Of a DNA stretch of 64,000 nt, positions 19,250 to 64,000 are shown one piece after another (positions within the stretch are counted from its first letter, which is position 1; each line of letters begins with the position of its first letter). The stretch comes from Balanoglossus misakiensis (Eukaryota > Animalia > Hemichordata). The notes below the pieces were generated by a model. The model saw nothing but the letters and a program-made list of their open reading frames with translations. It had not been told where the DNA came from and did no database searches. A program made the position numbers and the translations under genes. The stretch spans positions 8,355,413 to 8,419,412 of the forward strand of contig CM082581.2 of NCBI GenBank assembly GCA_040954595.2, in the 5' to 3' direction.

Positions 19250-19400
19250 GTAAATGAATGAATAAGTAAATGAATTAAAGAAGTTAATTGAATGGTTCAA
19301 TCAATCAATCAATTGAAGAAGTTAATTTAAGAAATTAATTGAGTTAATTAATTAAATTTATTTATTTATTTATTCATTTATTTACTTATTTATTTATCTA
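19250..19400. repeat. AT-rich low-complexity tract with (TAAA/TGAA), (TCAA) and (TTTA)n units
   Basis: Visible tetranucleotide runs just downstream of the cyclase gene stop codon. Confidence 0.75.
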
Positions 19401-19472
19401 TATTTTATGTAAGCATTTATCACCCAAAACACTAACGATCTAGATGATTGAGAACTTGCTGATCAGAAGAGG

Positions 19473-29712: not shown

Positions 29713-31612
29713 CTGATGATTTCAAAGCCTGAACGAGAGACAGTCAGCATGAGTAGTTTTAGTGTACGTATATTTCATACTTCTTGCTACCAGTAAGATT
29801 TTCATATTCAGGGTTTGAGTTGTCTATGAAAGTCAGTCGTTGAGAACAGTGAACAGAATTGAAAACCACAAATAGGCTATCAAGAGAAACTAAAGTAACC
29901 AAATTAATGTCAAAAATGAGACTTTGCCCCTTTCGGCATTTCAGTTGTCTGAATAATTATGTAGTTTATTTCAGATGGAATCAAAGTTGAAGTAAATATT
30001 TTGCTTGGAGACGACACTAATAAGTGCGAGGTGCTCAAACTCGCGTGTCTGGCTTTTCAAATGATGGAATGTTTACATAATATGCAAGATTGAGATAAAC
30101 AAATACGACATTTTGGATATGCTTTTACCTCCACGATGGATTTTTTTGAATTTGAATCCCGGTGACTTCTGTGCCACCAACATCACGACGTTGCCATATA
30201 TGGCAGAAAACAACAGTCGGTAACACATTTTAAAGAAAAAAGAAAGCGTTTATGAATTTTCAGACTATTTTTATAGTTGAATATTCTACAAAGTATCTGT
30301 ATACGTATGAAATCGCCTGGTCTATACTTCTCTTACCGTAACAACACTATCCTCTTAAATATTTATCTCCTACCATCTTACTATCCCCTCAACAGTAAAG
30401 CAGTATGTATTCGCTTACTAGTATATTGCGCCCTCAAATTTCTATCTACCCTTCACAGAGGACAGAGCGGCCTCACCAAATTCGGAATATCCAGCAAATA
30501 AAGCGAAAGAACGAACCAAAATGAAAATATTTTCACAGTAACGAAATAAGCACACGTCTGTTTTTCATGAGTAATTATTTCAGTTCATCGAGAAATCTAT
30601 GAAATTAGAAATATTTAATATGTATTAAAATACATGTAATGGAAAAACCTTCCAGGTAAGACAGCGTAAACTTGGAATCGCCGTTAGATGGCGCTCTGCA
30701 TTGCGTGTAGTTAGCACTATTCATTAATATTCCTACACTTTGTTTTATACATGTTCTGATTGAACGATTTAATGCAACCTACAAAAATCCATATGAAGAA
30801 CGGGCTCCAGTTTTCAAGTTCAAAACTAAGTGATATCGGTACTAACACTGCCAGTTTGGTCTTCTGCGCCATTTCTACTGCATAGCTGGGCTGTGCTTTT
30901 CGTGCAGGCAGACTGAATTGGTGCAGGGGACCAGACTATTTCTCTGCTGGACTCCACATCTCCGCACGGATTGCATCTCAACTTATAAAGAAACTTTCCA
31001 GTATAAATAGCCTCTTTCTATAAACTACCATTATTTATATATGAAATACTTTAAAGGGGAAATATATATGCAAAACTCATGGTGTCATACATGTACTTTT
31101 GCAACTCAAGCAGTAAGCGATGCAGTCGCCAAGCAGTTATCCGATGGAATTACAGACATCGACAGACACGTGATTCGCAAACACTTCACATTAGAATAAT
31201 CACGCATGAGGATACGTATTGCGATCATCGCCATAACAGGAAATGTGAAGAATGCACGACCAAGCAATGTCATTGTTTGAAGAACAAGTTGGTCCCGAAA
31301 ATCGCGCCCGAGAAGCACTTTCGTCCATCGAGAGAGAAAAAATGTGTAATTGAACAAAAAAATTATAATATCATTATGAGTAATAAATGGAAAAGGGGCT
31401 AGTTCGTCATCTATACATGCATTAATCGTTAACTATAACTTCTGCCTATGAAATTTCATTCAGATGAAAACTGTGACGAAAAAACCCATAAAATCGGGCC
31501 CTAGGTTTACGGTACTGCCTGGAAACATGGTGTAATGTGAGCACCATCGGAATGATATATTTGATTTAATTGATTTCTGTTCTTCTCCCTGTTGAGGACT
31601 GTTTCCCCAGAT

Positions 31613-38963: not shown

Positions 38964-41915
38964 ATTGGCAGCGCTTGAACCGGTGAAGGTTAATAAGATG
39001 TGGCTGGGCTATGAAAATTATCCGCAGTACCCCGTGAACCGAGCTTCACTCGCACAAAACTACTATAGGCTAGTGGAACTGTCTGCTAGTATGGAGGTCA
39101 CGCCCCGTCTTCTGTACGCATGCTAAATAACCACCACACGCATTCCGGTGCTGTTGAATTGGCTGATGCAGACTGGCCAGCCAACACCAACAGCTCATGA
39201 ATAAACATGACCGGGTGCGCACGTCGCTCTTTCGTAAATGGAAAAACCTGTGCCTGGCTGAAGAGGTTTAGTTCATTCACGTACGGATATGACTCACGCA
39301 GAAGTCACATGGTAAACACAATCATGATGTTGTAAAAGCGGTCTGAAGATCAGAAGAATGTGTTTTGTGAAGTTTGACATAAATGCCCCGACTACAATTG
39401 TGTTTGTTTGTTCGCTTGTTTCTTTGTTTGTGTGTTCGTTTTTTAAACATACTGCACACCCAAGTATCCCTAAATGAAATCATAATGTTATTTAAACATT
39501 TTGGTAGAAATTGGTAATAATGCGCAATTTTTCATTGGTGTGCGCTTTCCTGCACAATTATATTGCGGGGGCTGGAAGTCGGATTTAGTCATTTGAAGTT
39601 TCTTGGCAAAGTTTGCCATTTATAAAATTTCAATCGTGTTTCTGATTTATATGCGTGTTGAAGGTCAGGGCTGTTTTGTAAGGCGGTTTATAATTCGACA
39701 CGTCGACGTCACCACACTGCGTACAAAATTAGCTGAAAGCGAAACCTGTCCGACTTTGCGAATTCGATTTTTTTTTTCAATTTTAGCCGATCCCTGGTCT
39801 TGTGGTAATCCACACGTGATGTCACGCCAACGCTTCCTTCATGCACGGATGAACGCGCGGGTGGATGAAACGCCTACTGCAATACCACACCATACCTATT
39901 TGGACAATTTGTGGTGACCTTGCAGTTTCCCTAGCCTCAAGGCTTCATAAACATTGATTAAGTGTGATTTTCAGAGCTGGTCGCGAGTCAAAAGTGTGTT
40001 GAACTATCTGTAAATTTAAACTTCCGCGTAAAACTTTGATTTAACTGGGATTATTGATATTACAGTCATTGTAATTAAATTTAACTTGAAACTTCCACGT
40101 GAATTTTCAATCTGGTCTCAAGGTTAGAACAAGCCATAATCGCATGAAGCGGAAGGTCCGTGTGTATTTGCAGGCCCTAAATCTGAATACGCTGTTCAAA
40201 CAAAACAAAATCACAACCGACGGCAAGGGTGAGCTTATTCCCACGGACATTTTTGTCTTCAAGGGCATAAGAAATACCAATTGAATCTCAGTCGCTGTTG
40301 TTTGACAGCCTTCGATACTGATTGCAGTAAAATGATTTTATGGATGATGTTATTTTTTTATTGAAAACCATCTATGAAACATTTTGATCTTATTTCACGG
40401 AACTGTTCCTTTTATTTAATTGAAACTTAAGTCATGTTACTCTGCGGGATGAACTTCTCACCTGAGCTTTGAGCGCCCTTTGATATGTGCAGTGCGACGA
40501 ATATATAATTTTTGAATTTTAAAAAAGCTCTTAATACGTGTAAGCCTGGATTATTTTCTGTCAATGACAGCTTACCGCACATAGACATTTGCGTTCTGTG
40601 GGGCTATTTGATTTTTACGTTTGTGTGTGTGTCCATTGTGGTTCTCGGTGAGTGTTGTATTGTATATGCGGTTTCCTTCAATTTTTCTGAAAGCTCTTAG
40701 GTTTCCTTTGTGCTTTCATTAAACAATAGTGTTTGTTTAAAATGTGAATCAGTTGTAAAGTCAAACGTAACGGAATGAATTCACGTAAGAGATGTCTGTT
40801 TTTTTTATGGGAAATAGCACTAATGTACGTTTATAACAAAAGGCATTATGAGAGCTCACGCGAGTACATGTACTTATTGTAATAACTCGTAACAAAATCA
40901 TGCATATACAAACACATGTATGATCGCTTTCGTCATTGCGGAACTGAGACGATGTGCACACTTATACCAAGAAACAAAATATAAAAACAAAGGAAATACA
41001 CTTGCAATCGCGTGTTGAATGAGGAATTGTGGCCCGGTAAATGTAAGTTTGAAGGGAAATAATTTACCAATAACTACTTTGTAAAATAAATAAAATATTG
41101 AATGTTTAGACCGCCTCAGGTATGGCATAATTTAGTAGCCAGGAACCAACCTCTCAATTAACATACGGTCATTTACATTTGTGTAACCCTCGGATTTGAA
41201 GGGTCCATTGTTTTGTATTTATGTTGTCGGAAGTAGGGAATTTCAATCGAGGTCATTGTAACCCACGACATAAAGGTTTCACAAAGAAATCTGCATCATC
41301 TACATGCAGGTCATGTCTGGGGCACATGCACATAACAAGACAAAACCGTGAATGTCCGAAGCCTGTACCGAACACTGCCGAAGCTGCCCATCGCCATGCA
41401 ATAGATAGGCTCGCTGGCTACTCAAATACCTTTGACGGGAAACTGCCATCACAAAGCAATGCCGCGGCGAAAGTTCCCTAATTTTATTTCCGTGTATCGT
41501 AGGTAGTTAAACAAACTGCATTTCCAACGGGGGTCACAAATGGACGGTAATAGCAAAATGTCTCACAATATAAATATCTGGAGTGGGCCGCGTCCTTTAG
41601 TTATTTACCCTTATCTTCACATAAATCAAGTTCAATTCACTACGTGCTACTTCATGCAAAAACAGCATTCCAACGGTTACAACAAGCGCAATGTTATTAC
41701 CGTAGTCACGTGTCACACACTGTTGCATACCCCCTGGTCTTGCAAGAGAGCAGATTGGTATTCAACGATAGGTGACTGCGGTGAGCGCCCTCAGTGTCAT
41801 TTCCTGGCATACATGTACCCATGCAAATTTGTAAAACTGTATAAATGTTAATCTTTTATCAACTACATGATGGACATGTCACGTTAGATTTGACATTTTC
41901 GTAAAGATATGCTGA

Positions 41916-44158
41916 TTATTTTCCTGTGTCCGGCTTATAAAGCGTCGGGTCGGTCGCCGGGTAAAATACGAAACCACTGAGTTCGGCATCCCCCATGATG
42001 CACTTCTCCCAATCCGGCCAGAACCTTTCTTTCATCCTATAGCAATAGTCCTGTAAATTTTTGCAGTCACCTAGAACAACAAAAACCACAACAATTCACT
42101 CATTCAACGTTTGCGCTCTGACCCTCTGGCGGTGACGTCACTTGGGTCACGGTTTCTTCCGAGCTTGAACAAAATTACGCAATTTATACCTGGCTTTAAA
42201 AGGCCCTCTGAGTCGGTCGCATATGCACGGGGAAACGTGCTGTGTGTAAATGAAATAGTGTACATGTTCGATCGAACGTCAAAAGTGGGCTGAAGATACC
42301 GAAAAAAGTTGGGTTAGAAGCAGGTGTGATTTATGTGACGACAAGGAGACACATTCCTCAAACGCAACACGTACGAGGACCTTATGTGGATAAACATACG
42401 AACCTTTCACAAGGCTATGCTGTCGCGAACCTTCAAGCTGCCACAATATTTGAGCCAACTGACCAAAGATGGCGCAATCTTCTTCGCACGGCTCATCACC
42501 GAAAAGAAACTTCTTTTCACCTTTATCGTAAAATGAAAACAAGTATTGATGTTGAACGTATAATCATCAGTAAAAGAATCCTGTGATAGTCGCATTACCC
42601 AACTCGTTTATAAGCTTATCTAGAAACCACATTTACTAGGATGGAAAAATTGACTTTTCTGACGCTCATGCATCTAAATGCATTTACAGCCCACAGACCC
42701 CAGACTTGCGGCCCTACTCACCAAGAAAGTCGGAGAGTGCCTTAATATCTTTCTCCACGATGTGATAGATTTCTTCCTCGCTGTGGCGGCCAATTCCGTG
42801 GGCGTACATACTCTTCTTGGCCGACCGACCACCCAGCTTTGGAATCAGCCACTGGAAGATGAAACCTCTGGGAAATAACCTTCCAAGCTGTTTGGGAGAC
42901 TGCTCACTGTCGACCCAACGGGTATATGCAAGTGACCTGTATCGAGAGAGTTTATTAAAAGAGTGATGGGATGGGGAAACTCAAACGGTAGGGAAAGCAG
43001 CAAATTGTGCAATCTGTGTGGTTCCTCAAGCGTTTGAGATTATGGTCAGGAAGTCAATTAGTGTCTCGGGATGACTCCGATGAACGATGTAAGATTTTCT
43101 GACCATGGATTAACGAGATGTGTGAATCGACTTTCCGGGACGTGGTGTTCAAAGAAACTTGAAAGGTGGTGGTCAAAATGTGATATGGAATGAAACAGGA
43201 TGTTATCGCAATCGTGCAGTCCGTTCTTACCAATACAGCTCCTCCTCCACCATCTTCTGGAAGGCCCTGGCCGCGGCTCTCTCAGACGGACTCAGGTGTT
43301 TGTTCAGATCCACGTTGAATTTTTTATTCAGGTATTCGATGATGAAGCTGGAATCGCTGACCGCCTCCCCATTGTATTCGATCCAGGGAATCTTATTTTT
43401 CGGTGACATTTTATTACTGAATACGGACTGAAGTATGAAAAAACGAGATAAAGACTTGAAAATCTGATTTTTTATCTTCGTCTGTGATCACTGCATTGTA
43501 GGTGCCTTTCAAGTTTATCTTTGGTTGTCGTTCATAATGTGTTCAGCACTTGTCTTATACATAAGAAGGGCCAAATACCCGAGATTGTGAACCTTATTGG
43601 TTGTCACAACTCAGGGAGAAGACATGGTCCCAGTCAGTCATGTCGATGGCTGTTTAATACCAGCCAACGGCTTTAGACAAACACAGCAAGACCACAACAC
43701 TAGTCTTTGCGCAAAACTTACCACGTATGGGATTCGGGCGAACCTGAGATAAGTTTCCAACTTCAGTGGAAATGGTGACAAACTGGGAACATATCTCGCC
43801 CGGCCAGGCTGTCGAAGAATGACAGTGTCCCTGGGGTAATCCTTTCCATCCCTATTGAGAAATCGAGATATTCCCAGTACTTATTATACAATCTACACCT
43901 GTACCTCGCCTGTGGTATGTGACCTCGGCTACGATTAGCATTACATATATGCCAATGCACACCAGACCAGGCCTGCCTGTGCGCAGTGACCCGGCCGGGG
44001 CACGACCATTCGGCAACTTGCCTTGTAAGAGAGACCATGACGAAGCGTAATATTCAGCCAGGTGGGGTGACTTACCTGCCGGCATTTACCCATTTTCGAA
44101 TCCCAATGAAGGAAACTGTTGCGCCAACCACTGCCCCAACTGTCCATAAAGCGCTCAT
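41916..44158 (-). CDS. FAXC: FAXC-like paralog 2
   Basis: Exons 44158-44076 (MSALWTVGAVVGATVSFIGIRKW, N-terminal anchor), 43851-43722, 43427-43231, 42936-42722, 42520-42404 and 42070-41916. The frame is intact and ends ...PTLYKPDTGK*. Confidence 0.9.
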
Positions 44159-44772
44159 GATCGCTTCAGCTGGCCTCTGCAATTACTGTACGAACTGGCG
44201 ACAAAGACGTCCAAGTATACGTTATTGTCCCCTTATTGCATAGAGCGCCCATACAAACAAACCAGACTCGCGTTATTCTCAGGATCCAATGGCTAAGTAT
44301 GCAGTGCGCACCGTACCAGTGGCATCTTATGCCCGGATCGTGAGTTCAAAGGTCAAATGACAAGTCAGCGACCTTTTTTTCTGTTTCTGCAGTGCAACTC
44401 CAGCCAGGTAATGTCGTTAAATGGAAACTGATCGACCAGGCTGATTTTTTACATATGTGCTTGCTATATGTCCTTACTACTACATGTACATACACACCTT
44501 CTGAAAATGTATTGTTTTCGGTAATTTATAAACTACCTACTGCACGGAAGCGGCGAAATTGCTCATGGTTGCCAAGGGTGTAGTAGTAGTCAAGGGATGT
44601 CGTATGAAAAATCTTCGAACTCCGAGTCCACTGATGGCTGACCAAGCAAGGTGAGTGGGCTACTCTCAGCAATTCCGCGTAAATTCTTACAATATTTACA
44701 AATTTTATTCTTTTCGGCAAATAAATGAAAGACACGACATGTTAAATGGAAATTTTCACTATGAAATGCTGA

Positions 44773-47365
44773 TCATTTTCCAGAGTCCGGCTTGTAAAGT
44801 GTCGGGTCCGATTCTGGGTAAGATACGAAACCCTTCAGTGCTATGTCATGTCCCATGATGCACTGCTCCCAATCCGGCCAGAACCTTTCTTTCATCCTGT
44901 AGCAATAATCCATCAAGTTTCTACAGTCGCCTGGAACGACAAAAATGCGAACTTGTTGAATCGATTCACACTCTTACCATCTGGGTCGGAGCTGGGTACC
45001 AAACAGTACATCGCAAAACCAAGGAGTGCTTTGAACATTTTGAATGTGAACATGGGGACACTCTGTTGTCAATGACATTCCAAACACTCCCAAATTTAAA
45101 AATGTTAATGGCATATATGACTCCTTATCTCTGAAAGCCTTCGCATGCATCACGGAAACATGGACACGTCAGTTTTTTCTGTTGGACAATCTATGTGTAA
45201 GAATATACTAACCTTCCATAAGGTTATGCTGTCGTGACCCTTCAAGCTGCCAAAGCATTTGAGCCAACTGCCCAAATATGGCACAATCTTCCTCACACGG
45301 CTCGTCGCCGAATAAAAATTTCTTTTCACCTTTTTTGTAAACAGATATACAACTACTGTACTGATGATGAACATATACATTGTACACCTATAGTATCATC
45401 TGAGAGAAACTATATTCTTGTCATGGTCACACAACTCGATTAGTTCGTATCTTGTAAATTTTGTTTAAAATCTTTGAAAAGAAACCTAGACGGACGAACC
45501 CAATACACAACGATTGATAAAGTGTCACCATGTCTGAGACATTTCTGACGCTCCCTTGCCTTGCATTAGCAACGTGCATCACAGACCTCGGACTCTGTGG
45601 CCCCACTCACCAAGAAAGTCGGACAACGCCCTCATGTCTTTTTCCACGATGTGGTAGATTTCTTCCTTGCTGTGGCGGCCTATTCCGTGGGCGTACATGT
45701 TCTTCTTCACTGACCGCCGGGCGATCTTTGGAACCAGCGACTCGAAGACGAAACCCTTGGGAAGTAACTTTTCAAGCTGTTTGGGAGACTGCTCACTATC
45801 AACCCAGTGGGTATATGAAAGTGACCTGTATCGGGAGAGTTCATTCAAAACGTTTCGTTTTCAAACGCCAGGATGATCAAAAACAGCCAATTTTGTCATC
45901 TGTTTGTATTTTCAGAGTTTTTACGTTCACTGAAATTATCGTCAGAAACTTAAACACTGTACCGGGTGATTTCGATGAACAATGTGAAACTGTCTAGTAA
46001 CAGCAGCAGTTTACTAAATCCGGCGTGTGAATAATTCCCATGTCTTTCTGGAACGTGGCGTACAAAGAAATCACATGGACTATAAACACCACGGCGACTA
46101 GAAATGTGGTAGTTCCAATTCGGTGAGAAATAAAAAAGATATCGCGTCTGCAACTTACCAATATAGCTCCTCTTCCACCATCTTCTGGAAGGCCCTGGCC
46201 GTGGCTCTCTCAGACGGATTCAGGTGTTTGCTAAGATCCACATTGAATTTCTCATTCAGGTATTCGATGATGAAGCTGGAATCGCTGACCACCTCTCCAT
46301 TGTATTCGATCCAGGGAATCTTATTTTTCGGTGACATTTTATCACTAAATACGGACTGAAAGGTAAAAGATACCATAATAAGAAGTCTGTACTAGCTCGT
46401 AAGGGCCAAAATACAGACAAAATTATCTTCGTTGTCGTTCCGTCGTTGTTTTCGTGACCATTTATTGACCATCCACAGAGTCAAACACTAGAAATCGCAT
46501 TCCACGAAACAGGGAAAAATACAAAATGCCGAGTCTCTGCGCGAAAACTTACCACGTATGGGATTTGAGCAAACCTGAGGTAAGTTTCCAATTTCAGCGG
46601 AAATCCTGACATACTTGGAGTATATCTCGCCCGGCCAAACTGTCGAAGAATGACAGTGTCCCTCGGGTAGACTTTTTCATCCCTATTTGAGAAATTGAGT
46701 AGGTCGTGAGAATGCTTGTATTTTCATGAGACATTAGATTTTCGTCAATCCCCCCCACCCAACAGAAAATTGACAGGAGCAGATCACTCAGGTTTCTCTG
46801 ACACGTCCCTTTTGGAGTCATTGACCCAGATTGTGGAAATGCCTGCACTGAGCTCTTCCACGGACACATGACCATGGCTACTATATATAGCTTACCTTCT
46901 GACAGATGCATAATTTCGCAGCCCAGTCAAGGTTATCGCTTTCATTGTCACATTGAGAAGTCCAAGGTCTCTCCACCAACGGTATTGTGAACTTCTCATC
47001 GTGACAGTCACTGCTGTAGCTGTCCACAAAACTCTCATGGTGAATGGTGAGAGTTTTTTTCCGGACTTGTCTACTATTTACAACTGCGTAAGAAATTAAA
47101 CTACGCGCCTGTAGCTAGACTGGCCAAACATATATAGGTCTATGATCACGACCACGAACTTTGCACCGTACACAGCAGACCAAGGTGACTACTGCCATCA
47201 CCAGTGACTGGGGCGCGACATCTCTACTTGTCATGTGACTAATAACTTTGACGCGGGATAATATTTCAGCCAGGTGGCTTACCTGCCGACAGATACCAAT
47301 TTTCGAATCCCAATGAAGGAAACAGTCGCGACAGCCACTGCGCCAGCTGTCCAATAAACGTTCAT
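44773..47365 (-). CDS. FAXC: FAXC-like paralog 3 (closest to paralog 2)
   Basis: Exons 47365-47283, 46682-46553, 46355-46159, 45825-45611, 45329-45213 and 44930-44773. Internal exon sizes 130/197/215/117 are identical to paralog 2. Intact, ends ...YKPDSGK*. Confidence 0.9.
46896..47038 (-). CDS. Alternative first exon of FAXC paralog 3, mitochondrial presequence-like
   Basis: tcaccATG ... GTCAGAAG|gtaagc, 143 nt, phase 2 like the normal exon 1, no stop codon: MRVLWTATAVTVTMRSSQYRWWRDLGLLNVTMKAITLTGLRNYASVR. Confidence 0.6.
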
Positions 47366-47798
47366 GATCACTTCGGCTCTTCAATTGGACACTGCAATAT
47401 AGTGCACATATGCCCTAGTTTAATACATGAAGTACTTTATTCAGTTTACTGTCACCTTAGTATGCGCATTGACCCTCATTGATCATGCGTCATTCTCAAG
47501 ATTCCACGGCAAACATGCGCAGTGCAGTGAGCCGATAAGTTGCAGCTTATGCCCGGCCCTCCGTGAGTGCCGGCAGTTTCATGTATTTTCAGTTTTAAGA
47601 GAGAATAATCTAAAGTAACCTTCAGCAAAATACGAGAAAAAAGTTATAATCTTTGATTTTCGGGGCGCATACTTCCTTAAACAAGTTGAAAGTGGCGGAT
47701 AAGGCATATTCTCTTGATCTTTTGTATTTCTCATCGCGAAGTTCTCAATGCATAAGTGCGCTGTATGCATAAGTAAAAAGCATATGAAACTACAAATG

Positions 47799-49734
47799 TT
47801 AAGGAGAGCCCCTAAACACTGTAGAATCCGTCTCGGGATATATCAACTCATACGGTGGCAGTTCTCTCTCCCCCAAGATGACCCGATCCCAGTCCGGCCA
47901 AAATCTTTCTTTCATGGCGTAACAGTAATCGCGTAGATTGCTGCAGTCACCTGGAAAAGAAGAAGTGTGGGATGTAATGCGCCTCGGATACCATTTTCCA
48001 AAAGCATTTACCGCGAACTCATCAGTGCAAGGAGATACCTCACTATCATGATGTCATCTATATCTTACCGTTCACCAGAGTCTCCTGCGGCGATCCTTCC
48101 AATTGCCAAACAAAGTGGGCTAGCTGACCAAATATGGCGCAGTCCTCTTCACAAGGCTCGTCGCCAAACAGAAACTTCTTATTTCCTGAAGTAACGATCG
48201 AAGAATATCAACCAAAAACCCAAAATCTGCACAATCCTGACGTTTTGCCATATTATCAACATCATGTACATGTAGTTGGAATACCTCACGCCTAAGGGTT
48301 ATCTGTATTTTCAATGGAATGAATATTACATAGTAGATTGACTGTACAAAGTTAACGTCCTTCCGAACGACAAAATGTAGCTATCACGTCTGTTAAGTTT
48401 TTAGTCACTGAAATGACTGTAAAGCATGAAAGATTACAATGGTAATACCTAAGAATGCAGACAAAGCTCGGATGTCCTTCTCCGCTATTCGGTAGATTTC
48501 ACTTTCGGAGTGTCGACCAATCCCGTGGCCGTACATGTTTTCCCGTGCGTTGCGTTTCCCCGTTATGGGTACGACGCGTTCCCAGAAGAAACCCTTTGGA
48601 TGAAGTTTGGCCTGGGTGGAATTTTCGTCCAGCCATCGGGTGTAAGCAAGCGTCCTGCAGTAACAACAAAGGTTATCTATGTGGAAAGTCCATTTCATAA
48701 CAGCATAATCGACTTGGAAACAGGCAAGTGAGAAAACATATCTTACCAATAAAGATTCTCCTCCGCCATCTTCTGGAAGGCCCTGGCCGTGGCTCTCTCA
48801 GGCGGACTCAGGTGTTTACTCAGATCTACGTTGATTTTTTTATTCAGGAATTCGATGATGAAGCTGGAATCGCTGACCACCTCTCCATTAAATTCAATCC
48901 AGGGAACTTTGCCTTTTGGTGAATTTTCGAAGGAATCTGCGTTCTTTTCGTGAGTGAAAATCGGAAAAAAATGTCACCTCACCAGGAAGATGATAGAATG
49001 TGAAATGAATATGTTATAATATGAAAATTGTGCTCGTAACAAGGCAGTTCAAAAACTTTGAGAATATTTTTATCAACTGAAAAGAGAACTTACCACGTAC
49101 GGAATTTTGGCAAATCTCAGATAAGTTTCCAATTTTATAGGAAACGGTGATAAACTCGGAGCGTATCTTGCTCGACCCATTTGATGTACAATAACTGTGT
49201 CGTTAGGATATTCGATCTTTCTCCTGTGTATAATAGAAAGATTTACTGATGTTGCAATTATGCAGAAAGCTTAATTATGGCAGATCTTGTCTCGGCTCCC
49301 TCTGGTGCCCATTCATTGGGCCTGGTATCCTTGAGGGTCAAAGGGTGATATCTTACAATCATGTCCCTGCAATCAGCTTGTACCGAAAAGGCTAGGTCCA
49401 ATTGGTCTGGTTTTATCAACTGAAGACGCGGTGCAACCTTACTGAAGACTGTGCAAACACCTTCTGACACGTGACAGCCACGGGCACTGTCAAAGTCGGG
49501 CTCGTTGTGCTGACTCTAAGTCTACATGGTCAAGAAGTCGTCACATCATATTATAATATAAAACCACTGCAACTAATCAAACGCAACCAACTGCATACTG
49601 CCAAATTTGCTCGAGGTCTAAGCTTACAACAGCAATAATATGATCATATCATACCTTGTTACATTTATCAGCCATGTAAACAGATTAATTGCAGCTGATG
49701 TCGCGACTTCCACCACTGTCCATAGAAAAGTCAT
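47799..49734 (-). CDS. FAXC: FAXC-like paralog 4
   Basis: Exons 49734-49655, 49223-49094, 48943-48747, 48654-48449, 48185-48069 and 47950-47799. Intact, ends ...STVFRGSP*. Confidence 0.88.
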
Positions 49735-50327
49735 GGTGTACCATGTTCTGTATATACGCCACGGGGAAGTAGTCCAGGTTGGCCAGACCCAAATCGAGGC
49801 TACCAAGATGGCCGCCAATTGGCTTGGGGCAAATGTGATTACATACAGACAGACAGACGAATACAGTAATATGTATATACACATCATCAAATAAAGACAA
49901 AAACAATGACAGTTTTTCTTTTTAAAAAACTTGTATGTTTTTTATTATGAAAGAATTAAGTACTCTCATAAAGGTTTTAATCCATGGGAAAAACTTGGCA
50001 CTTATTTTGGTGTGTCTCCCTATAAAGTGAGCTCATGAAAAATCTTGGAATTGTAAGATAGATCTATGGCATGCATGTTTGCACTGACTGCAATAGAGCA
50101 ATTCACTTATCAGTAAAAACCACTACTTTAATTTAAATTGTTGTACATGTACCAGTATTCAAGTACTAACAATTTTATAGAGTGATAATAATTCTGCCTA
50201 TTGTACATTTCAGATTTTTTTGATAAAACTAGGACATATAAAGAGACACTTGTTCTAGAGGAGAAACAGCCGAATTCTACTCTTTCGGCAAGATCTGAGA
50301 GGGTTTAGGTTTCATTCAAACATTAGC

Positions 50328-52784
50328 TCAGCCTTTGTATGCTGTTTTATCCGATTCAGGATAGCCTACAAACTCCTTGAGCTCGCGGTCTCCCATGATG
50401 CATTGCTCCCAGTCTGGCCAAAATCGTTCTTTCATTCTGTTGCAATATTCGCTAAGATTGCTGCAATCACCTGCAAACACATAAAAATCAATTATCAAGG
50501 ATGGTTGAATGAAAAAAAAAATAGTATTCGAAATTCCACAAGAGTGATATTTTGGTGTTACATGTAATAATTGTAAATGTGTATGCATGTACTGTAAGTA
50601 CAATATGTTCTACAAGAATGTTCTACAGGTATGTGTGTGTATGTATACATACGTAACTACATATGTACATTGTCCCTGTGTCTGCCTGTATGTCTTCCTA
50701 TTCGTCAGTTTCTCACCTTTCATTAGTGTTTGTTGTGGGGAACCTATAAGATGCCATAGAATCTGTGCTAATTGTCCAAACAGGGCACAATCCTCTTCAC
50801 ATGGCTCCTCCCCAAATAGAAACTTCTTGTCACCTGTAATGACGAGTTATGAGTCATACATCAAAATACAATGTATTACCCGTGGCATAGGTAAAATGGT
50901 AGACCCAGGGTCTATCATGGTAAAACAGTCTTGGTGTCAACAGTTACAACTTGTCTCTCTCTCTCACCTAAAAACACAGACAGCGCCCGTATGTCCTTTT
51001 CCGCAATGCTGTAGATTTCATCTGTGGAGTGTCGACCGATCCCGTGCCCGTACATATTTTTCCCTGCCATGCGTTTGGCCACTTTGGGCAGAATGAATTT
51101 ATAGAAGAAACCCTTGGGGAGCAGATTTGCCACTTGGGAATTTTTGTCGAACCAACGGCTGTACATGAGGGTCCTGAATATAAAAAGAAACCCATAGGGT
51201 CTAGTAACTGCCAAACTTGTGCAAGCGAAAGTTGGAAACATTGCAAAAAATCACTGCAATGCTTATAACACAAAGTGCCAGATGTTCTACTTATTTCATG
51301 ATAAATAGGAACGGCAGACTTCAATGCTCTGACATGACGATGCCTTACCAATAGAGTTCCTCCTCCACCATCTTTTGGAAGGCCCTGGCCGTGGCTCTCT
51401 CAGATGGACTCAGGTGTTTGCTCAGATCCACGTTGAATTTCTCATTCAGGAATTCAATGATGAAGCTGGAATCGCCGATCACCTCTCCGTTGAAGACAAT
51501 CCAGGGAACCTTGTGTTTGGGAGACTTTTCCATGGTATGTACGTTCTGGGAAGCAAATGGGGTAGAAACAAAGAGAAATGTATTGCGGGTCAGGTTTGGA
51601 TCGATTTTAATGTTTTCTACAGTCATGGTGTCAGAAAGTGGAATTATCCATGAGCTTTCTTCAGAGGCCACGCCCATTCTGATCAATACAGTACTTACCA
51701 AATACGGAATTTTGGCAAATCTCAGATATGTTTCTAATTTTATTGGAAATGGCGACAAACTGGGAGCATATCTGCCTCGGCCAATTTGATGCAAAATGAC
51801 TGTGTCTTTTGGGTAATCTGTCTTCTTGGTCTTCTTGCTGTAAAATAAACGAGAATAATTTCAGTCCATACAGAGTTATTAGATATAGATTCAGGCCTAT
51901 ATTATAACATGGCTTTATCGAGTTCACTAAATGTTCAACCTAACGCTGCAGCTACTTGACAGGCAATTTGCATATTTATCGAATAGTGGTACAGGGCCAT
52001 CCAAGGTCAACAGATTAGGACAGGGTCCATTTTAACCCAATACTGACTTGCCCACATGTTGTCAGTCCTGTTTTATGGTTAATGCTTGTGCAGTTATCAT
52101 TGCACTGTCCCTCGCTGGTGTCATGAAATGTGGATATTAATATAACTGGACACTGTAATTTCAATGTGCATATCAGGTTTGAATAAACCAGCGAGAGAAT
52201 CATACTTAATGCTGCTATGTTTCTGGATTTAATGAATAACTGGTTGTTTACATTGATGTCTAGGTTAAGGAGTGTCCAGTTTGATACTGAGGGGGGCAGT
52301 GTAACAGAGGCCCGATTAAATGTATACCTTCACCAATATTTGTACAGTTTTCTCAACCCAACAGAGAAACTTCAAGTTGAACTATTAATGGCCCTACCTG
52401 GGCCCTACCCACAGAGGAAATGGTGTTATTATAATCAATCGGACTTATGTTAATCACTGCGAAATATGACACTACTCTTGCATATCCCCCCCCCCCCCCC
52501 CCACCATAACCATTGAACACTACCTCAGCGTGACATGGCAGAATTATGATACAAAAACACACAGGCGCAGGAATCACACTGACTGTAGCCTGATGTTGAA
52601 TCAGGGTACAGTCAATGTGATACCAGGCAAAACCTCGAGCTACAATAAACCACCGAACCGGTGTATCTTCTACAACTTTATCATCCTGGTCACATCACAC
52701 TTACCTCCGAGAAAATTTCACACGAAATCCTATGAATATTACTGTAGCTGCAGCCACAGCCCCAAAGGTCCACAGAACACTCAT
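50328..52784 (-). CDS. FAXC: FAXC-like paralog 5
   Basis: Exons 52784-52705 (MSVLWTFGAVAAATVIFIGFRV), 51837-51699, 51545-51349, 51173-50968, 50833-50717 and 50470-50328. Intact, ends ...DKTAYKG*. Confidence 0.9.
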
Positions 52785-53991
52785 TATCATCTGCGATTTG
52801 AAAATGACAAGGGAAGATCAACTATCATTTCCACAGAGAAGTCAGTACACATACTCTTGACAACTGCAGCTGGCAGTTAATGGGTAACATGGGGGCAGGG
52901 CCAGAGTTCAAAGGTCAGTTGGGGTCTTCCGTGTACGGTCGTGGACGGGCGTTTGTATAATACATGTACATTATACATGAATAACCGAAAAAGAAAAATC
53001 TAACCACCACGCTCTAAGTGACAGAGGAGTCGAAATGACAATTTTAGGAATCGGGTAGCCCCGCCGCCGGAGAGTACCTTCGTTGCGTGAAAAGCGATTG
53101 GCGAAAACCATTTGCGCCCTCTGCGTCGTGTTTTGTGTTTTTCATTGTCTATGAAAATAGCTCACAAAACCACATGAGATCGATGTAGACAAAAATTGTT
53201 CCCCCCCTCAATCTACGTATGCCAGTTTGTTTACAGAAAAGTTGCACGCAGCATTTGGTGGCAGGAATGTAATTATTTTCAGTAATGCACACGTTCATGA
53301 CAGGGTCCATACAGGGGACACCTGTTGAATGAAAAACATATTTTTCTTAGTGGTTTTGCAATGGGTAGCTGTTGCCAAGTACCGCCCAAGTTGTCAGAGC
53401 CTTTGATGAGGGGTCGGAATGACCGTCGTTCACGCGTCAGTTGAATAAACACAGAAGTGAAGTGCAGAATAAGATTTATTTGCATCAATTTGGTGGAGAA
53501 CTTCACACACACACACACACACCACTCAATAACACTCTTCATTTCAGGACGGTTTGTCCAGATCGTAACCGACTCGGTAAATTTCATATTTTTGTATGCG
53601 AGAACAAAAGCTACCAATCACAGGTTCGCCGCAGGCGTGGTATCATCATACAAAACGGGTGGAATTCGTCATGGTGACGTCGTTAGGAAAGACACGTGAC
53701 CAATAATCCCACAGTAGTACTTGGAAATTTATAGCTGACAACGCCATTGTGTCTCTCCGCGCCAATGTAGGGCGAGACTACTGCCATTAACATTCCCACG
53801 CTGATACATTTCGAATGTTTCCAACCACCTTATTGTAAACGTAGGCCTAAACGTGGATTTCGTAATTGGGAGACTTTCTCTCGTGGTTCAGTTGGTGGAC
53901 ATCTCCATTGAAACGTAAAACGAGCGTTTGTATGAAGCACACATCTTGATCAAAACACCATTTGCAAATTGCAACAACAAAACGTTCTCCA

Positions 53992-54943
53992 TGAGTCACA
54001 CCAAAAAAATATTCCCGTATACCACCACCAAAGTTAACATCAAAGAATGACCACTGCTGTCTTCCTTACGAACCATCTGACAAAGAACTTACTAAGTTAC
54101 AGCGATATTTTCCCGAACATGAAGATACACCATCTGAAAAGAACATTTCGTCTTTCCGAAGAACAAGGCGTACAGCAAGTGGGACGCTAACTCGAAAGGT
54201 CGCTCTAATTTTCCCTCTTCTTTAGATGTGAAGGGAGATTTTTCGAGCAGAGTTTTATTGCTGAGGGATGGATAGAAATGCATTGCCCAGCAACAAGTCG
54301 GCGAGTCACGTATTGTTCAATTCGGTTTATTTTATGACAGGTTATTTGATCAGTTGAATAAAAGCGCAACAATTCCTTAACCTTTTTGCATGGGGTTCAG
54401 TTTGGGCTTTCCATTGTCTGAAGTGAATTTATTTCATTTTAATTTTACAAAATGACACCACACACATGGTCAAAGTGGGGACTATTTTGAGAATTTTTTT
54501 TACTGGAAATCCAGGCGCGCGTGTACACGGTGAAACTTATGTTCGGAGCAATTTGAGCCCTCCCCGTGACGTCACTGGTATGCAAGTAGCGCAACATTTG
54601 TTGGCATGTCCCTGATTCAGAAGTGGGCACGATCGGTCCTTCGGTTTTATTTTTCACGAGCTATCGAAATTCCAATTGGTGTAAAACTTATGACGCGATC
54701 AGGTGTGGCAAGACACCGAGGCCTCGTTTTCGATTTCATCGACATGCCAACGCGGGTGCGCGCTGCACTACTTTCACCAATTTTATTGTCGAATATTCTC
54801 GCGGGGATTTCCGTGGCGTTGTCCTATTCTTTTACTGGTTGACACGTGTCACTCCCACCAAGTTCAAGTATCATCTTGCTTCCCACACTACTACCGGGTG
54901 TGTACTTCCTCAGTGGGCCAGTGATAACGCCCGGCAATATAAA
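53992..54943 (+). promoter_or_regulatory. Inducible-type promoter of the candidate cytokine gene (AP-1, CRE, NF-kB, TATA)
   Basis: TGAGTCA 53992-53998; kB-like GGGCTTTCC ~54404-54412; TGACGTCA 54567-54574; consensus kB GGGGATTTCC 54803-54812; TATAAA 54938-54943, 39 nt before ATG 54977. Confidence 0.6.
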
Positions 54944-54976
54944 TTACCTGCCCATAAACTATTAAACAGAGATTAT

Positions 54977-57900
54977 ATGGTGAGGTATTGGTTGTGATTA
55001 AAGATGTCAGTCTAGCCGTTGAAGTTGTTTTATCGGACTACTAGTGGCATATTTAAGAATCTGTGGGAAAGTTCGTCGGATTCGTTCAGTTCTCTCAGAC
55101 TGATGTTGCCTTCTCGCTGTGATTACATGCGTACGACTCAAAGGGAAACTGGATTCACCCGGAAGAACATCCAAGTGCATGCTTACTGCATGACGAAATA
55201 TGCATATATTTACCTAAATATACCAAATATTCGTCAGACATAAACTTCAGTGACATGCCTTATTTCTAAGTGATGGCGAAATTACCAATTTGGCGAATTC
55301 ATGTAGGTCCCACTCGGTGTTCGAGGGGATTTGGAGGTGGAATTGTCCCCTATATCATGATCGACTGCCGCCTTTTTCCTCTGATGAAAGACATTTTCCT
55401 TGAATGTCGTAAGCAATGAAAAAATAACCATGTGGGGAAAAAGTATAAATAAGAACGAATTTTTCGCATTAAAACACTTACCAACGAGAAGCCGACACGA
55501 AGAAAAGTCACTGACATTTGACTGCAGACATCAAAATTAGCAAAGATGGAAACCGCTGGCAGTAAGTATACTTTATCATACATACACGGATAGAATTTGT
55601 CCGTCGACCTGGTCGTGAAACGAGTAACTGATATATCACAGAGAAGTCAAGGCGATGTGTTTGTTAATTGAAGAAAACTGTTTTCTTTAATTAACTCACT
55701 CTATGGAACTAATTTCGCACATGTTAGATATTTTTTACGTGTACCTTTTGGCCATTTTCCCGAAAATTTAGTTTGTGCTAATTTTACTGTAGTGTCTTGT
55801 TTGGGAATTGAATTCAAGTCCGGACTAGAATTCAATAATGATCGTCACACCAATGGATGCTATGTTAGCAAGCTAAATATTGGGGTTTTCTACAGTGGTA
55901 AACCAAAAAAACATACATCCTTAAGGAATCAAAATTTCAAAGTAATTTTATTCTATTTTTTTTTTCGCCTTTCTAAGTTCTCAGACTTGTGTGCGTCGTG
56001 TTGGTGACAGCACTTCTGTCGGAAGCTACACCTCTACCAAGTAGTACCCCCAGCTCCAGCTGTGTTGAAACATGCACAGGTTACGGACTGCTTGCTAACG
56101 AGGGGAGTGTCGTCCGCACCGAAGCCTTGCAGACGCTGAATAGATACGTGAGTTGAATTTCTGTAAATTGCTATACCAGTGGATCACGCGTGATCTCGCC
56201 GAGATGCGAGATCGGGGATGCAAAAATAGTACTAGTGGTCAGTGCCGGTTCATAGTACACATATACACCGAGAAACACGGCCATCGAATTCCCTGTACAT
56301 AAGTCACCGGTATACGTATTTCACACCCTATTGATATGAATCTCTGTACGTTAATTTGGAATTCAGAAAGGGAAAATTGTAAGTACAATACCAGTTCTAA
56401 TATTATGAGTAATGACTGGAATATTTATGCGTCTTTTTGTCAATGAAAAGACCCCCAAATTTCCAGATTAGTTTCCGCCTGTGCGTTTACTGGGGGCACC
56501 CGGGAACGCTGAACGACGTATTTTTTTCTGATAACAGATATAAATTTTAACCTGAGAGTCATAATAATTCACCTTGACCATTTTGTTGATAGTGTCAGGA
56601 TTTATTGCCATACAATCATGATTTCTCACCTCTCAGTGATAAGCGACTGTAAAATTGGCCGGGACGATCGTTGGCGTTGGACTAGTGGAAATATAATTCA
56701 CAAACTTTCCATGACAACTGTGAAAATCTCTGCCTTTTTCAAAATTTCTAACATGTTGTTTAGCGTATACATACATGTACATGATTTTTTTCGTGTATAA
56801 AAATCACAATTATATACACACAAAGCGCCATTTACACGAAACTTTGGCAAATGTACAAACTCATAATCACGGTGTACGGTTTCAAAACTCCTGGGAACTT
56901 GATATCAAAAGAGAGTCAGAAAATCATACTATGGGAATAAAATTCCTAAACGACATAAAAATAATGTGCGTACATATTACACATTGGAGTGTGACGTGGA
57001 ACTTATGAAACAGTTTCGTGGGAACACGATCTCAAGGCTTGTCGTATAGGTTTATGTGTAGGCCTACGGGGGTTAACTATGATTTAATGATCAGGGTATT
57101 ATTTATTAAAATTTGCTCTCGTTTCTTCTCCAACACAAGAGCTTTCCGGTTTTTAGGGAGCCAATGATTCTCCGTTGCTCGGAAACTCCTTTGGCTTCAA
57201 GTGTTTGCACGAAGCAATCCATCAGCAATTGGGCTTTAAATTCGTTCACTTGTCCGTTGGAATAGAGGCGGCGACGACAGACGAGAAGTCCTCTCTGACG
57301 ACGGTGAACCTATATTGTCGTCAACTCTCAGCTGATAAACAGGTTTTGTGTCTTTTCCACGACAGGACCAAGAACGACCGGTTGGTGATTACAGCTTGGA
57401 GGTCCCCACACTGCCTGAGATGAAGTCGGTAATGGAACGGAGGCAGATGTCGGTAAGTACTATAACAACAGCAACAACGTACTGTGGAATATTTAATTCA
57501 AAATGGCCGAGTTAATTCCACCGTCAGGTGGTCCTTAAAAATGCTAAAAATGTTACTGTAAACCGTACACACCTTACTTTCTAAGGAAGGCAGCGTGAAT
57601 GTCTAGAAGATGGCCGATTTAAACACTTCGTTGAACAAAGAGTAAACGTGACCAAAAAACGGAGTGAAGTACAATCCCACCATTAAAGTCCAATACGAAT
57701 TTCATGAACCTCCTCACTACATTTGATGTCCACAGGAAGTCGATCTCCTGCTGTGGCACAAATCGAGTCTGTTGAACTACCAGGAACACTTCGTACAGCT
57801 CATGGAAGAAGAGTATGCTGAGAATCCCAGCTTCTATTACGACTTCAAGAACCAGACATTTAGGTGTGAGCGTGCAATTGTCAAATTTGACTCCATGGTA

Positions 57901-58361
57901 AGTCTGGATATCAATTGTTTCCGTGACAAGAAATTGTATTCCCGTGACACTAGACAGCAACGTTTCATCTGGGCAGCATACTTCAGGGTGGAGGGTGCGT
58001 GTAAAAAAATAGATGCATGTGAAATTGTATTCTTTTAACGTTTGGGATTTTGTTTATCCGACAACAAAATTTCCTCCTCGATTAAATCACAAAATAGTTG
58101 GTCGTGATATTGAAGTCTATTTTGCGCCGATCCTGCTGCCTCACTGAAGACGTGATTTTAAACGTGTAAAATTTTTAACAGCTGTGTGGAAAGGCTTACC
58201 AGGATGTGACCCTGGACCCCTTCGATCTGGAAGAAATCGCGGAAACCAGTATCAGGCACTACAGGCAGAGGAAAATCCAGAAGCAATACTACGATTACTC
58301 CGTGACCATCTCCCAGGATGCCGAGTGGCTCCAGTTCACTGTCCATGAATGTCCCTTTTAG
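54977..58361 (+). CDS. Putative secreted long-chain four-helix cytokine (IL-11/IL-6/LIF/CNTF family-like), 199 aa
   Basis: Exons 54977-54984 (ATGGTGAG|gtattg), 55985-56147 (|gtgagt), 57366-57452 (|gtaagt), 57736-57897 (|gtaagt) and 58182-58361 (TAG) total 600 nt with no internal stop. Protein, with / at exon joins: MVRLVCVVLVTALLSEATPLPSSTPSSSCVETCTGYGLLANEGSVVRTEALQTLNRY/DQERPVGDYSLEVPTLPEMKSVMERRQMS/EVDLLLWHKSSLLNYQEHFVQLMEEEYAENPSFYYDFKNQTFRCERAIVKFDSM/LCGKAYQDVTLDPFDLEEIAETSIRHYRQRKIQKQYYDYSVTISQDAEWLQFTVHECPF. The gene model is well supported; the family assignment is an inference. Confidence 0.7.
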
Positions 58362-58461
58362 TATTTTTTCTATATAGACTACGCCACATCCACGACATCC
58401 TGCTGAAGCTTAATATTGTCTCGCAACACGTTTTAAACTTATATTATAGGTAGATGGAGAA

Positions 58462-60462: not shown

Positions 60463-63400
60463 CTACTGCAGCGAAGGGAGTTTGAACTTCTTCACGCAGT
60501 GCTGAAGGAAGTTGACCACAAAGAGATGGCCATCCTTGGTGAGCAGGATATCTGATGGTCTCATCAATCCACCTTGGCACGTGATGTGACCGATGAATTC
60601 ACCATTCAGTCTGAACACCTGGATGAAGATACACAACACATACAGTAGACTAGATTACTATGAAAGTGTGTAAACAAATGATGTTACCCACTGAACAAGA
60701 ACTTTGGAATAAATAAGTGCCTGAAGGATATTTGACGTAGCCCATTGCTTAAAACTCAACTCAGTACGTTAACATCTGTAGGATGTTTTACACAGACAAG
60801 AAAACTGATGAAAAAAATTATCATCAAAAGGTATAACCGCTGTCCTGAGTTTACCTGAATACGGTCATTCTTGCTGTCAGCAATCAGTATGTTGCCCACG
60901 CTGTCCACAGTAACACCTGATGGTTCATTGAACTTGCCCACTGTTGTCCCTTTTGAGCCAAACTTGGTGCGAAGTTCTCCTTGCAAGGTAGTCACATAGA
61001 CTGCATGGTTTCCCAGGTCGCTGACGATCAGGTTGTCTTCGTAGACGTCGATGAAACGACACTTGTGGTGGGTCCCATTCGCCAGAGGTTCAAACGTCTT
61101 GCAATGTATCACGCTGCCGTCCACGTCAAACATGACTACACGTGCATTGTATTTGTGTTTGCAGGTGTCTAAGACTATGACGTGGCCGTGTTTATCTACG
61201 GCCATACCGTATGGAGATTTGAAGAGAGAGCGCCCAAAGCTTGTCAGAAACTTCCCATCAGAGTTGAACACTTGCACCTCGATGTCGTCCTTCACCAGTA
61301 TGTCACCGGACTGAGTTACAACGACTGCTGACGGTCTTGAGAACTGTCCAAGATCCCCAATACACCACTTGAAACCACCGTCTGGATCAAACACCTCCAC
61401 CCGATTGTTTCCGGTGTTGGCAATGACATAATTTCCACCTGGTGTAATGGCAATGCCAATGGGGTAACGGAGATGGCCATGATCCACTCCAAAAGACCCA
61501 AACTTCCGAACAAGGGGTGCGAATACACTGCATGTACTTGCCAAGAGATTCTCCAGATCAACACTCGGAACTTCTGCACTTTCTAGTTCTTTTGTGACGG
61601 GATCACTGCCACAGTGGTCATCTCCTCTTGTGTCTTTATACCCCAGTTGGCGAGCTGCCAATGGTTTCCTAAGGGGACCACTGTTAGGGGATTTCTTGAC
61701 TACCAAATTTCCCGAGCTACTGGAGAAGGGGGAGAGTGTTAAAGCTGGTGATTTGGGACACATGTCTATAGACCCCGTCTCTGATTCCGTCTGCCAGACC
61801 TCTGTGATGTTTTCTGGACTAAGTGGATAGCTGTTTGTCCACTCTGCATCTCCAAAGGAACCACTTTCTTCTCGATCAGCTGTCGGACTATACTTTCCAC
61901 CTGCTACATCTGCTTGCATCTCCTTGTGACCTTCTTCAACGTGTGACAAATCTTGATCTGTCCATCTTCTGACCTTGGCGTCATCCTCGCTGGTGTGTTC
62001 AACTCTGCTACATGTACCTTCATCGTTTCCTTTCAGAGTTTCTTTACTCGGCAGACTACCATTCCATTCGAGGAAATTTTCATTCAGGTCATGATTTTTC
62101 ATCCCGCCGGTCCCATGCTGGTCCCTGTCAAATCCGCCAACGGAGTTTATGCTGTCACTCTCCCAATTCTCTGCACTCCTCATCAGCTCATTATGCTGAG
62201 AAGTGGTCACCAGATGATCTGTCATCTCTGTACCGGTACTTCCATTCTGTTGTTCGACAAAACCACTGACAATACTTCTATCGCTCTCCCAGTGCTCTGC
62301 ATTCATGATCTTCAAGTCTTGATGAGAAGCAACAACTGTATTGCTGTTTGACTTGTTGATGTTAGCATCTGGCGGGGCTTCATTAGAAGTGAATGAGACA
62401 CTGTCGCAATTTCCAGCAGGGTCGTCACTCAACTCAGGCTTTGCTTCTTTGAAGACATCACTGAGAGTACCCACTGAGGAATGTCTCTTTTGGCCAAGAC
62501 TGCCACTTGAACTTGTACAGGTACTCTGGTCGGACTGAATCCAATCTTTGATCTTCAGAAGGCAAGCTTTGTCAACTCTCCGTTTCTGAGCCACCTCTTT
62601 ATGTCCTTTGTTAGCAGCCTTTGGTAACAGACATGTTTCTCTTCTTAGCCTTCCACCATCTCCGTCACTACCATCACTGTAACTTGGTTTGCGACGGACT
62701 TGCATGCAAAACGGACTTCCTCGGATGTGCTTTCCGAACAATTTGATCTCCAACTTGTACCTGCCAAGCATCTGAGGACAAAACACCAGCTTGTATGTGC
62801 CCTGTTTGTCAGGATCATCGTATAACTCCACTGGTTCTTCTCTTTTCAAGCGGTTCTCCAGGCGCACAGTGAAGTTGCTGATGAGGCCCTCGACATACTC
62901 GCATCTTGCATCAATCACAACGGTTTCCCTCTGTCCAACTCTTCCGGAATACAACCCATTCCCATCGGCACGGACATTTGGAGGGAATGCCAGACTCTGT
63001 TGGATGCTACCCAGGTTCTCTCTCAGTTGGTTCAAGTCGAGTGGTGTTATGCTGGCTCTGAAGAACACGGTAGTCTCGTCCTTCAGATTACATTTGGGAG
63101 TGAGGAACTTCTCACTGGTGACATGAGTCAGTCTGGCCAATAGGGTATCTTTCATTGCTAGCAATTCAGCTTTATTGGCATATTTCAGAATGTCTTCTGC
63201 CACTTTACATGTACACTGAAGTAGATGACTGTTTTCTTGAAGTTGTTTCTCCCCCGTCTCAAGATGCTCTATTTTCTTTGCACATATGCTTTCTAACTCG
63301 CACAGCATTTCTTCTTCGTATTCCTTTATCAGGTTAACGTTGCATTCTGTCATTTCTTGGACTTCCAGCCTGGCATTTTCAAGCCGTTTTTCCAGCTCGA

Positions 63401-64000
63401 CTTTGGCAAGTGAGAATTCGCGGATAGTGCTCGGCAATGTCTGATTGGTCAATACCTTCAGCTTTTTTATCATGTCGCACACAACTGCTGGGAGTCTTGG
63501 CGTTGCTGTACTCAAGGGAACTGTATCATGACCAGAAAAGCCATGGGCACTTTCTTGGCAAGCCACGCAGAAGGCTTCATCACATTCGCCACAGTAAATA
63601 TCAAGCAGCTTGGTCTGATGTATTCTGCAATAGACTCCCCTTTCCTTTGAGCTCCGATACATCAAGAATTCCCCAAGCTCCATCACCATGTGGTCTTTGA
63701 ACACTGTCATGTGCGCATGTGCGGCCACACAGTTGAAGCACAGATACTTGGTGCATATGACGCAGTACTTCTTGGCTGGCAAGTCGTTATCACAACTGGT
63801 GCAAGGGATGTCTTCGGCGAGACTGTTGTGGGAGGCAGTGGGCTCCTTATGAACGCAATTCAACACATTCGCAACAAAGGCATTGTCGGTAAGACCTGGC
63901 ACACTGTGAGGTAGCACAGACTTGGTGTCACACAATGGACAAGGCACAGACAACTTCACCCGGTCAGTTTTTAAGCAGGGCAGGCATGCTGTGTGCAAAC
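60463..64000 (-). CDS. TRIM-NHL E3 ubiquitin ligase (TRIM2/3/71-like: RING, 2 B-boxes, coiled coil, filamin, NHL repeats); 5' end outside window
   Basis: A large exon from >64000 to 60855 carries a partial RING (HTACLPCL..CPLC), B-box1 (CTSC..C..C..YLCFNCVAAH), B-box2 (CRIH..YCGECDEAFCVAC..H), a filamin repeat (GTYKLVF..G.HIRGSPF) and NHL repeats (RYPIGIA, GKFNEPSGV..ADSKNDRIQ|gtaaac). The last exon is 60618-60463 (VFRLNGEFIG..RPSDI..HCVKKFKLPSLQ*). Confidence 0.93.

Follow-up and report, generated by a model that had tools for sequence, protein, structure and literature searches.

A candidate helical cytokine gene in an acorn worm

The 64,000-nucleotide (nt) stretch of Balanoglossus misakiensis DNA analyzed here (GCA_040954595.2, contig CM082581.2, forward-strand positions 8,355,413 to 8,419,412; the window hereafter) is intron-rich animal DNA with ~42% GC. 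Toward its right-hand end, on the forward strand, lies a predicted gene of six or seven exons encoding a small, putatively secreted protein. The initial annotation had concentrated on the motifs preceding this gene, comparing them with the vertebrate IL-6 promoter and reading them as a sign of immune- or injury-induced expression. In our analysis, the motif cluster alone is of little note, and the main value of the locus lies in the gene downstream of it, a good candidate for an acorn-worm cytokine of the IL-6 type. The gene model consists of the following parts (positions are those of the window).

54968..54979, forward strand: exon 1, a predicted micro exon; its 5' end is placed from the TATA box, and it ends in ATG at a GTGAGG donor
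55528..55561, forward strand: exon 2; CTGAC branch motif 17 nt upstream of the acceptor, ATG 55546, GTAAGT donor, phase 1 intron in the signal-peptide region
55978..56147, forward strand: exon 3; hydrophobic signal peptide, Ser/Pro/Thr linker, CxxxC and predicted helix A; coding score p=0.007
57157..57303, forward strand: exon 4, uncertain; phase 0-0, 49 codons, frame intact with or without it
57366..57452, forward strand: exon 5; Pro-rich, predicted AB loop, GTAAGT donor; its one allele difference (1/1) is silent
57736..57897, forward strand: exon 6; two predicted helices (B and C), contains L-x2-Y-x3-F
58182..58361, forward strand: exon 7; short helix within a predicted CD loop, followed by predicted helix D and the stop codon
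58362..58976, forward strand: predicted AU-rich 3' untranslated region (UTR); TTATTTATT at 58462 and 58933, AATAAA at 58953 and 58971

Both exon chains, with and without exon 4, are open to the stop codon and joined by splice signals in compatible frames, yielding proteins of 211 or 260 amino acids (aa) from ATG 54977 and of 204 or 253 aa from ATG 55546 (without and with exon 4, respectively). Of the five GTRAGT words in 55000-58400, four coincide with donors of the model (18 such words occur on the forward strand of the whole window), and the model frame ranks best by coding score in four of the six scored exons (3, 4, 5 and 6). In the predicted 3' UTR, ATTTA is found 4 times vs 1.5 expected, a weak excess.

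Allelic variation was followed in contigs from two runs, X1 and X2, which contain one contig identical to the window alongside a divergent one. This combination makes a second animal the less likely source; the contigs more probably stem from a single animal with two haplotypes, which may be the animal that the window itself came from, and lend no independent support. Differences between the alleles are biased toward silent sites, with five of six silent in exons 5-7 (P 0.0015-0.0065) and seven of nine in exons 4-7 (P 0.0004-0.0025); in exon 7, all three are silent and the other allele keeps the stop codon as TAA. The last three exons are under purifying selection, and, judged by its sequence features, the gene is almost certainly a real coding gene.

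Three observations count against the model as drawn. The coding scores of exons 2, 5, 6 and 7 are individually non-significant (p 0.07-0.19), and exon 3 has 4 listed differences, 1 of them silent and 3 replacements, in a listing of 40 of 184 entries. The third concerns exon 4, which a coding score of p=0.04 and 2 silent differences favor, whereas a first-base nonsense allele (57157), a weak donor and an intron of 62 nt disfavor it. With the allele at 57157, exon 4 would open with a stop codon, and, given the 0-0 phases, skipping the exon preserves the frame. An extension of exon 6 by read-through into 57898-58038 was rejected, as 6 of 8 substitutions there are replacements and a 2-base deletion shifts the frame. 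At ~55797-55840, within intron 2 of the gene, and at 52560-52600 there are short repeats of a dispersed type, where contig depth is very high and loose ends are numerous. A search for paralogues within the window and an Rfam search were blank or uninformative.

Promoter motifs and the start of the gene

The motifs around the predicted start are listed below, with offsets counted from an assumed start at 54968.

53992..53998, strand not assigned: AP-1 consensus TGAGTCA (-976), at a chance-level count; may belong to either divergent gene
54567..54574, strand not assigned: perfect cyclic-AMP response element (CRE), TGACGTCA (~-401)
54586..54595, strand not assigned: C/EBP-like site (one mismatch) located 12 nt past the CRE (-382); at 1.16 such sites per kb, not significant
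54728..54737, reverse strand: IRF element GAAANNGAAA (~-240), absent from the initial annotation; 0.28 per kb across the window
54803..54812, forward strand: kB site GGGGATTTCC (~-165), the sole exact copy in the window, within a 288-base stretch free of differences in run X1
54938..54943, forward strand: TATAAA box; predicted transcription start ~54968
55444..55451, forward strand: second TATA-like box, TATAAATA, 102 nt ahead of ATG 55546; a rival promoter

The order given in the initial annotation, with AP-1 at 53992, CRE at 54567, kB at 54803 and TATAAA at 54938, was recovered, as was the distance of 39 nt from the start of the TATA box to ATG 54977. Its caution that each motif could be due to chance is borne out for AP-1 (8 in the window vs 7.7 expected under an order-3 Markov model), the kB consensus (4 vs 3.9) and TATAAA (41 vs 37 on the forward strand), whereas CRE is over-represented (6 vs 1.5). 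The CRE palindromes lie at 20842, 20968, 25520, 28664, 42133 and 54567, two of them being the same site in duplicated MYND genes. The joint occurrence of AP-1, CRE and kB in one given kb has a probability between 1.6e-4 (at Markov rates) and 6.4e-4 (at the rates of the window), and the trio did not occur within 1 kb before any TATAAA in any of 46 Markov-simulated 64-kb windows. Random placement (6000 placements per rate set) put the trio before a TATAAA in 0.9-3.3% of 64-kb windows in any order and in 0.1-0.9% in the observed order, although the motif set was picked post hoc and these chance figures therefore overstate significance. Overall, the set modestly exceeds chance, and an inducible promoter is a plausible reading of the motif cluster.

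The individual sites contribute unequally. The AP-1 site, 0.95 kb from TATA 54938 and 1.2 kb from ATG 52790 of a divergently oriented FAX-like gene, is positioned nearly midway between that gene and the cytokine-like gene; a role in the latter is doubtful, and the site adds nothing to the case for a promoter. For the kB site, we rate function slightly above an even chance.

In run X1, no differences were found in 54696-54983 at full two-allele depth, vs 11 in 54202-54983, and these difference-free 288 bases include the IRF and kB sites, the TATA box and the first splice donor (P ~0.006 if all 11 differences fall outside). This invariance is a hint only: 7 of the 11 differences have no assigned position, another difference-free tract of more than 200 bases is found at 55401-55629 in the same run, and the comparison probably involves two haplotypes of one animal. 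A further point against the proposed promoter is the second TATA at 55444, a real rival that could replace the upstream one.

If transcription started at TATA 55444, exon 2 would be the first exon of what would still be a secreted class-I helical factor, and the upstream motifs would represent a distal enhancer or chance. In this arrangement, TATAAATA would stand 102 nt before an ATG in strong context (55546; A at -3, G at +4), itself in frame with ATG 54977, and the box is accompanied by the difference-free tract just mentioned; by comparison, ATG 54977 is in weak context (T at -3), is immediately followed by a splice donor (ATG, then GTGAGG) and would lie ~9 nt from the cap. The donor at 54980 is nevertheless good, a branch motif and acceptor are present at 55528, the join is in frame, and the kB and IRF sites fall within the invariant 288 bases adjoining the upstream TATA. 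We consider a start at 55444 rather unlikely and TATA 54938 probably the start in use. Translation likelier begins at ATG 55546 than at ATG 54977 because of the stronger context of the former.

Secretion, signature and predicted fold

The protein contains a single hydrophobic stretch, at the N terminus (hydropathy exceeds 1.6 in 19-residue windows that begin at residues 5-16), and past residue 35 hydropathy stays at or below 0.62, so that no membrane anchor is predicted. Secretion is predicted, since the only hydrophobic stretch is N-terminal. Among the criteria used to screen for IL-6-type proteins, the first two, a length of 150-280 aa and a signal peptide (PMC13081863), have their counterparts here in 204-260 aa and the N-terminal hydrophobic stretch.

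Counted from ATG 55546 and without exon 4, the gene would have five exons with intron phases 1,0,0,0; the first intron would split the signal region and the other three the mature part. The IL-6 gene likewise has phases 1-0-0-0, as do GH and EPO genes, so this structure is not specific to IL-6. The same division of introns, one in the signal region and three in the mature domain, is described for IL-6 genes (PMC13081863). The phase 1 intron between exons 2 and 3 excludes a class-II helical cytokine (interferon/IL-10).

The only L-x2-[FY]-x3-[LF] in the model, at the start of exon 6 in the form L-x2-Y-x3-F, corresponds to the tail of the IL-6/G-CSF/MGF signature, C-x9-C-x6-G-L-x2-[FY]-x3-L (PMC3271213). 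From exon 6, two long helices were modeled (pLDDT ~60), and from exon 7 (pLDDT 54) one short helix, at residues 16-30, which sits where the short CD-loop helix of IL-6 lies (PMC7378365). Searches and folds took single-exon or read-through pieces of 29-103 aa. With a 103-aa fragment model, 46 residues of which are intron-derived, Foldseek found nothing at E<=0.001, and VIA-align returned generic bundles; with no cytokine among the matches listed, the fragment fold searches neither support nor exclude the fold. The spacing of residues in exons 5-7 presumably resembles that of CNTF/CLCF1/IL-27p28-type proteins.

Several results weigh against an IL-6-type identity. The full signature is missing in both models, with both Cys gone and S in place of G, and by this measure the predicted protein is not an IL-6 orthologue. 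A signature-like tail, along with a pattern of cysteine and leucine recalling the signature, was also seen by eye in the frame 57140-57262, which was rejected as coding (it ends in a stop, lacks a donor and has a non-coding score, p=0.71); because a similar tail occurs there, signature-type motif matches arise by chance. FxxK, which at the start of helix D is a feature of the LIFR-binding subgroup (LIF, OSM, CT-1 and M17; PMC9601804), is missing in exons 5-7; its single copy falls within exon 4, itself uncertain and remote from helix D. In the low-confidence exon 7 model, helix D does not form where it was expected, and the hydrophobic moment computed for the 20 C-terminal residues is larger for a strand than for a helix. 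Pfam returned no cytokine families for five single exons (29-59 aa), single exons had no cytokine match among PDB sequences, in two homologue searches or in the ESM Atlas (nothing >=0.9), and a search of 1.84 billion representatives gave two matches, both repeat artefacts.

These two matches, to a viral repeat protein and to a snail Ig-repeat protein, were discarded as repeat-inflated. A pattern-matched locus, one of 397 matches, was also discarded; it covered 20 residues at 55% on a gene-dense, prokaryote-like contig with no other exon matching.

Taken at face value, the blank database searches, the unmodeled helix D and the generic bundles among the fragment matches would fit a lineage-specific secreted protein of another fold, possibly immune-induced and not a helical cytokine. 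The blanks are weak evidence, however, because short pieces were used and lamprey IL-6 is likewise invisible to BLAST (PMC13081863), and the size, the signal-region intron, the exon-wise placement of loops and helices and the signature tail match a cytokine plan. We regard this alternative as unlikely; the predicted protein is a candidate member of the class-I superfamily, for which we consider a class-I four-helix fold likely.

Within the class-I superfamily, the gene could encode a hormone-type factor (GH/prolactin/EPO/leptin-like) under endocrine or developmental control, the immune motifs being incidental. A GH-like class-I cytokine of 208 aa, along with other divergent members, is known from amphioxus (PMC9010856), and CRE sites would suit endocrine control, as the shared intron phases would suit a GH or EPO relative. 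A perfect kB site, together with the IRF element and the AU-rich 3' UTR, better suits an inflammatory gene, however, and the signature tail belongs to the IL-6/G-CSF group. The hormone-type explanation appears improbable, and an IL-6-type rather than a GH/EPO-type protein is favored with moderate confidence.

Proposed function and significance

That the gene is immune- or injury-induced, as the initial annotation suggested, is plausible because its cytokine-like anatomy (signal peptide, size, introns and partial signature) is independent of the promoter and because acorn worms encode NF-kB and IRF factors (PMC10210618). Beyond the sequence anatomy, we infer all steps of the following scheme. 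Microbial or wound signals would activate NF-kB together with IRF and CREB-type factors, which would bind at ~-165, -240 and -400, respectively. Transcription would start ~30 nt past the TATA box, the micro exon would be joined to exon 2, and most translation would begin at ATG 55546. Owing to the AU-rich 3' UTR, the message would be short-lived, and the secreted four-helix protein would act via a hemichordate gp130/Domeless-like (IL6R-like) receptor and JAK-STAT. A likely class-I four-helix cytokine of the IL-6 type and a likely NF-kB-driven promoter are, as a joint proposition, about evenly poised.

Recent studies have reported IL-6-family ligands from vertebrates only (PMC13203501; PMC12284397); in 2026, the family was extended by structure to lamprey and hagfish (PMC13081863). 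In Saccoglossus, an IL6R-like receptor and JAK have been reported (PMC13203501), and PMC9010856 states that class-I cytokines have not been detected in acorn worms so far. No earlier report of an acorn-worm IL-6-type cytokine was found among the literature matches listed, which did not cover subscription journals. We tentatively propose, with somewhat less than even confidence, that the gene represents the first cytokine of IL-6 type, with a class-I four-helix fold, to be seen in an acorn worm, encoding the so far missing ligand of the hemichordate gp130/IL6R-like receptor and having vertebrate-style introns and an NF-kB/IRF/CRE promoter. If true, the inflammatory relay from NF-kB through an IL-6-type ligand to JAK-STAT would date to the deuterostome ancestor. 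With a candidate ligand gene and a candidate kB promoter, the origin of IL-6-type inflammation becomes directly testable in an acorn worm. Acorn worms are known for regeneration.

Neighboring genes

A cluster of five or more FAX-like/metaxin-type GST genes occupies ~31600-35300 and 41800-52790 on the reverse strand; its last member begins at 52790 and faces the cytokine-like gene head to head. On the other side, a TRIM/NHL protein is encoded at 60759-63998 (reverse strand) in a single long frame that continues past the window edge; its sole match at E<=1e-20 among 5656 candidates is a Ptychodera flava protein (XP_070540925.1; 62% identity), a match that by itself makes an acorn-worm origin of the window likely. 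Farther away are two long single-frame zf-MYND and DUF4470 genes (24482-26251, reverse; 27955-29709, forward), which form a divergent inverted duplicate with 88% identity over 2.4 kb, and a multi-exon putative cyclase gene (~19400-22050, reverse; Pfam PF04199). Neighbors of the IL-6 locus (TOMM7 and others) were not seen in the window, where the neighbors are the FAX-like GST, TRIM/NHL, MYND-DUF4470 and cyclase genes.

Comparison with known promoters and cytokines

In the human IL-6 promoter, AP-1 is located at -283 and IRF at -267, followed by CRE and NF-IL6 at around -160 and by kB, which occupies -75 to -64 (PMC5165036). The likeness to this promoter put forward in the initial annotation is loose; it holds for the order AP-1, CRE, (C/EBP-like), kB and TATA, and an IRF site is found in both, whereas spacing and composition differ. 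The motifs here span ~950 nt vs ~280, that is, 3.5 times more; kB lies at ~-165 vs ~-75, a difference in spacing that argues against equivalence; the IRF element is between CRE and kB rather than between AP-1 and CRE; and, the C/EBP sequence carrying one mismatch, there is no clean C/EBP site. The combination of C/EBP beside CRE with kB at ~-75, all within ~300 nt, was not found here. The shared order is more likely to reflect convergence than descent at this evolutionary distance.

The predicted protein resembles the vertebrate IL-6 family, including the lamprey and hagfish IL-6-like and CT-2-like members, in size, signal peptide, introns (without exon 4), the signature tail and the lack of BLAST-level similarity. 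It differs in the missing signature Cys and Gly, the absence of FxxK from the last exon, an extra first exon containing only the ATG and a possible further exon, and its fold is predicted from fragments. Lancelet and lamprey class-II interferons (bioRxiv 10.64898/2026.05.30.728932) are likewise helical proteins of ~200 aa with a signal peptide and five coding exons, but with 0-0-0-0 phases vs the phase-1 signal-region intron here. The amphioxus GH-like class-I helical cytokine (PMC9010856), compared by description, is also a protein of ~200 aa from an invertebrate deuterostome with low identity to vertebrate cytokines, although it comes from another phylum and is reported as a growth/osmoregulatory hormone rather than an inflammatory factor. 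Finally, the Drosophila Unpaired ligands of Domeless belong to the insect lineage and, with no sequence similarity found, were compared by description; as the acorn-worm protein may prove to be, they are secreted invertebrate JAK-STAT ligands acting in infection (PMC7378365, PMC13203501).

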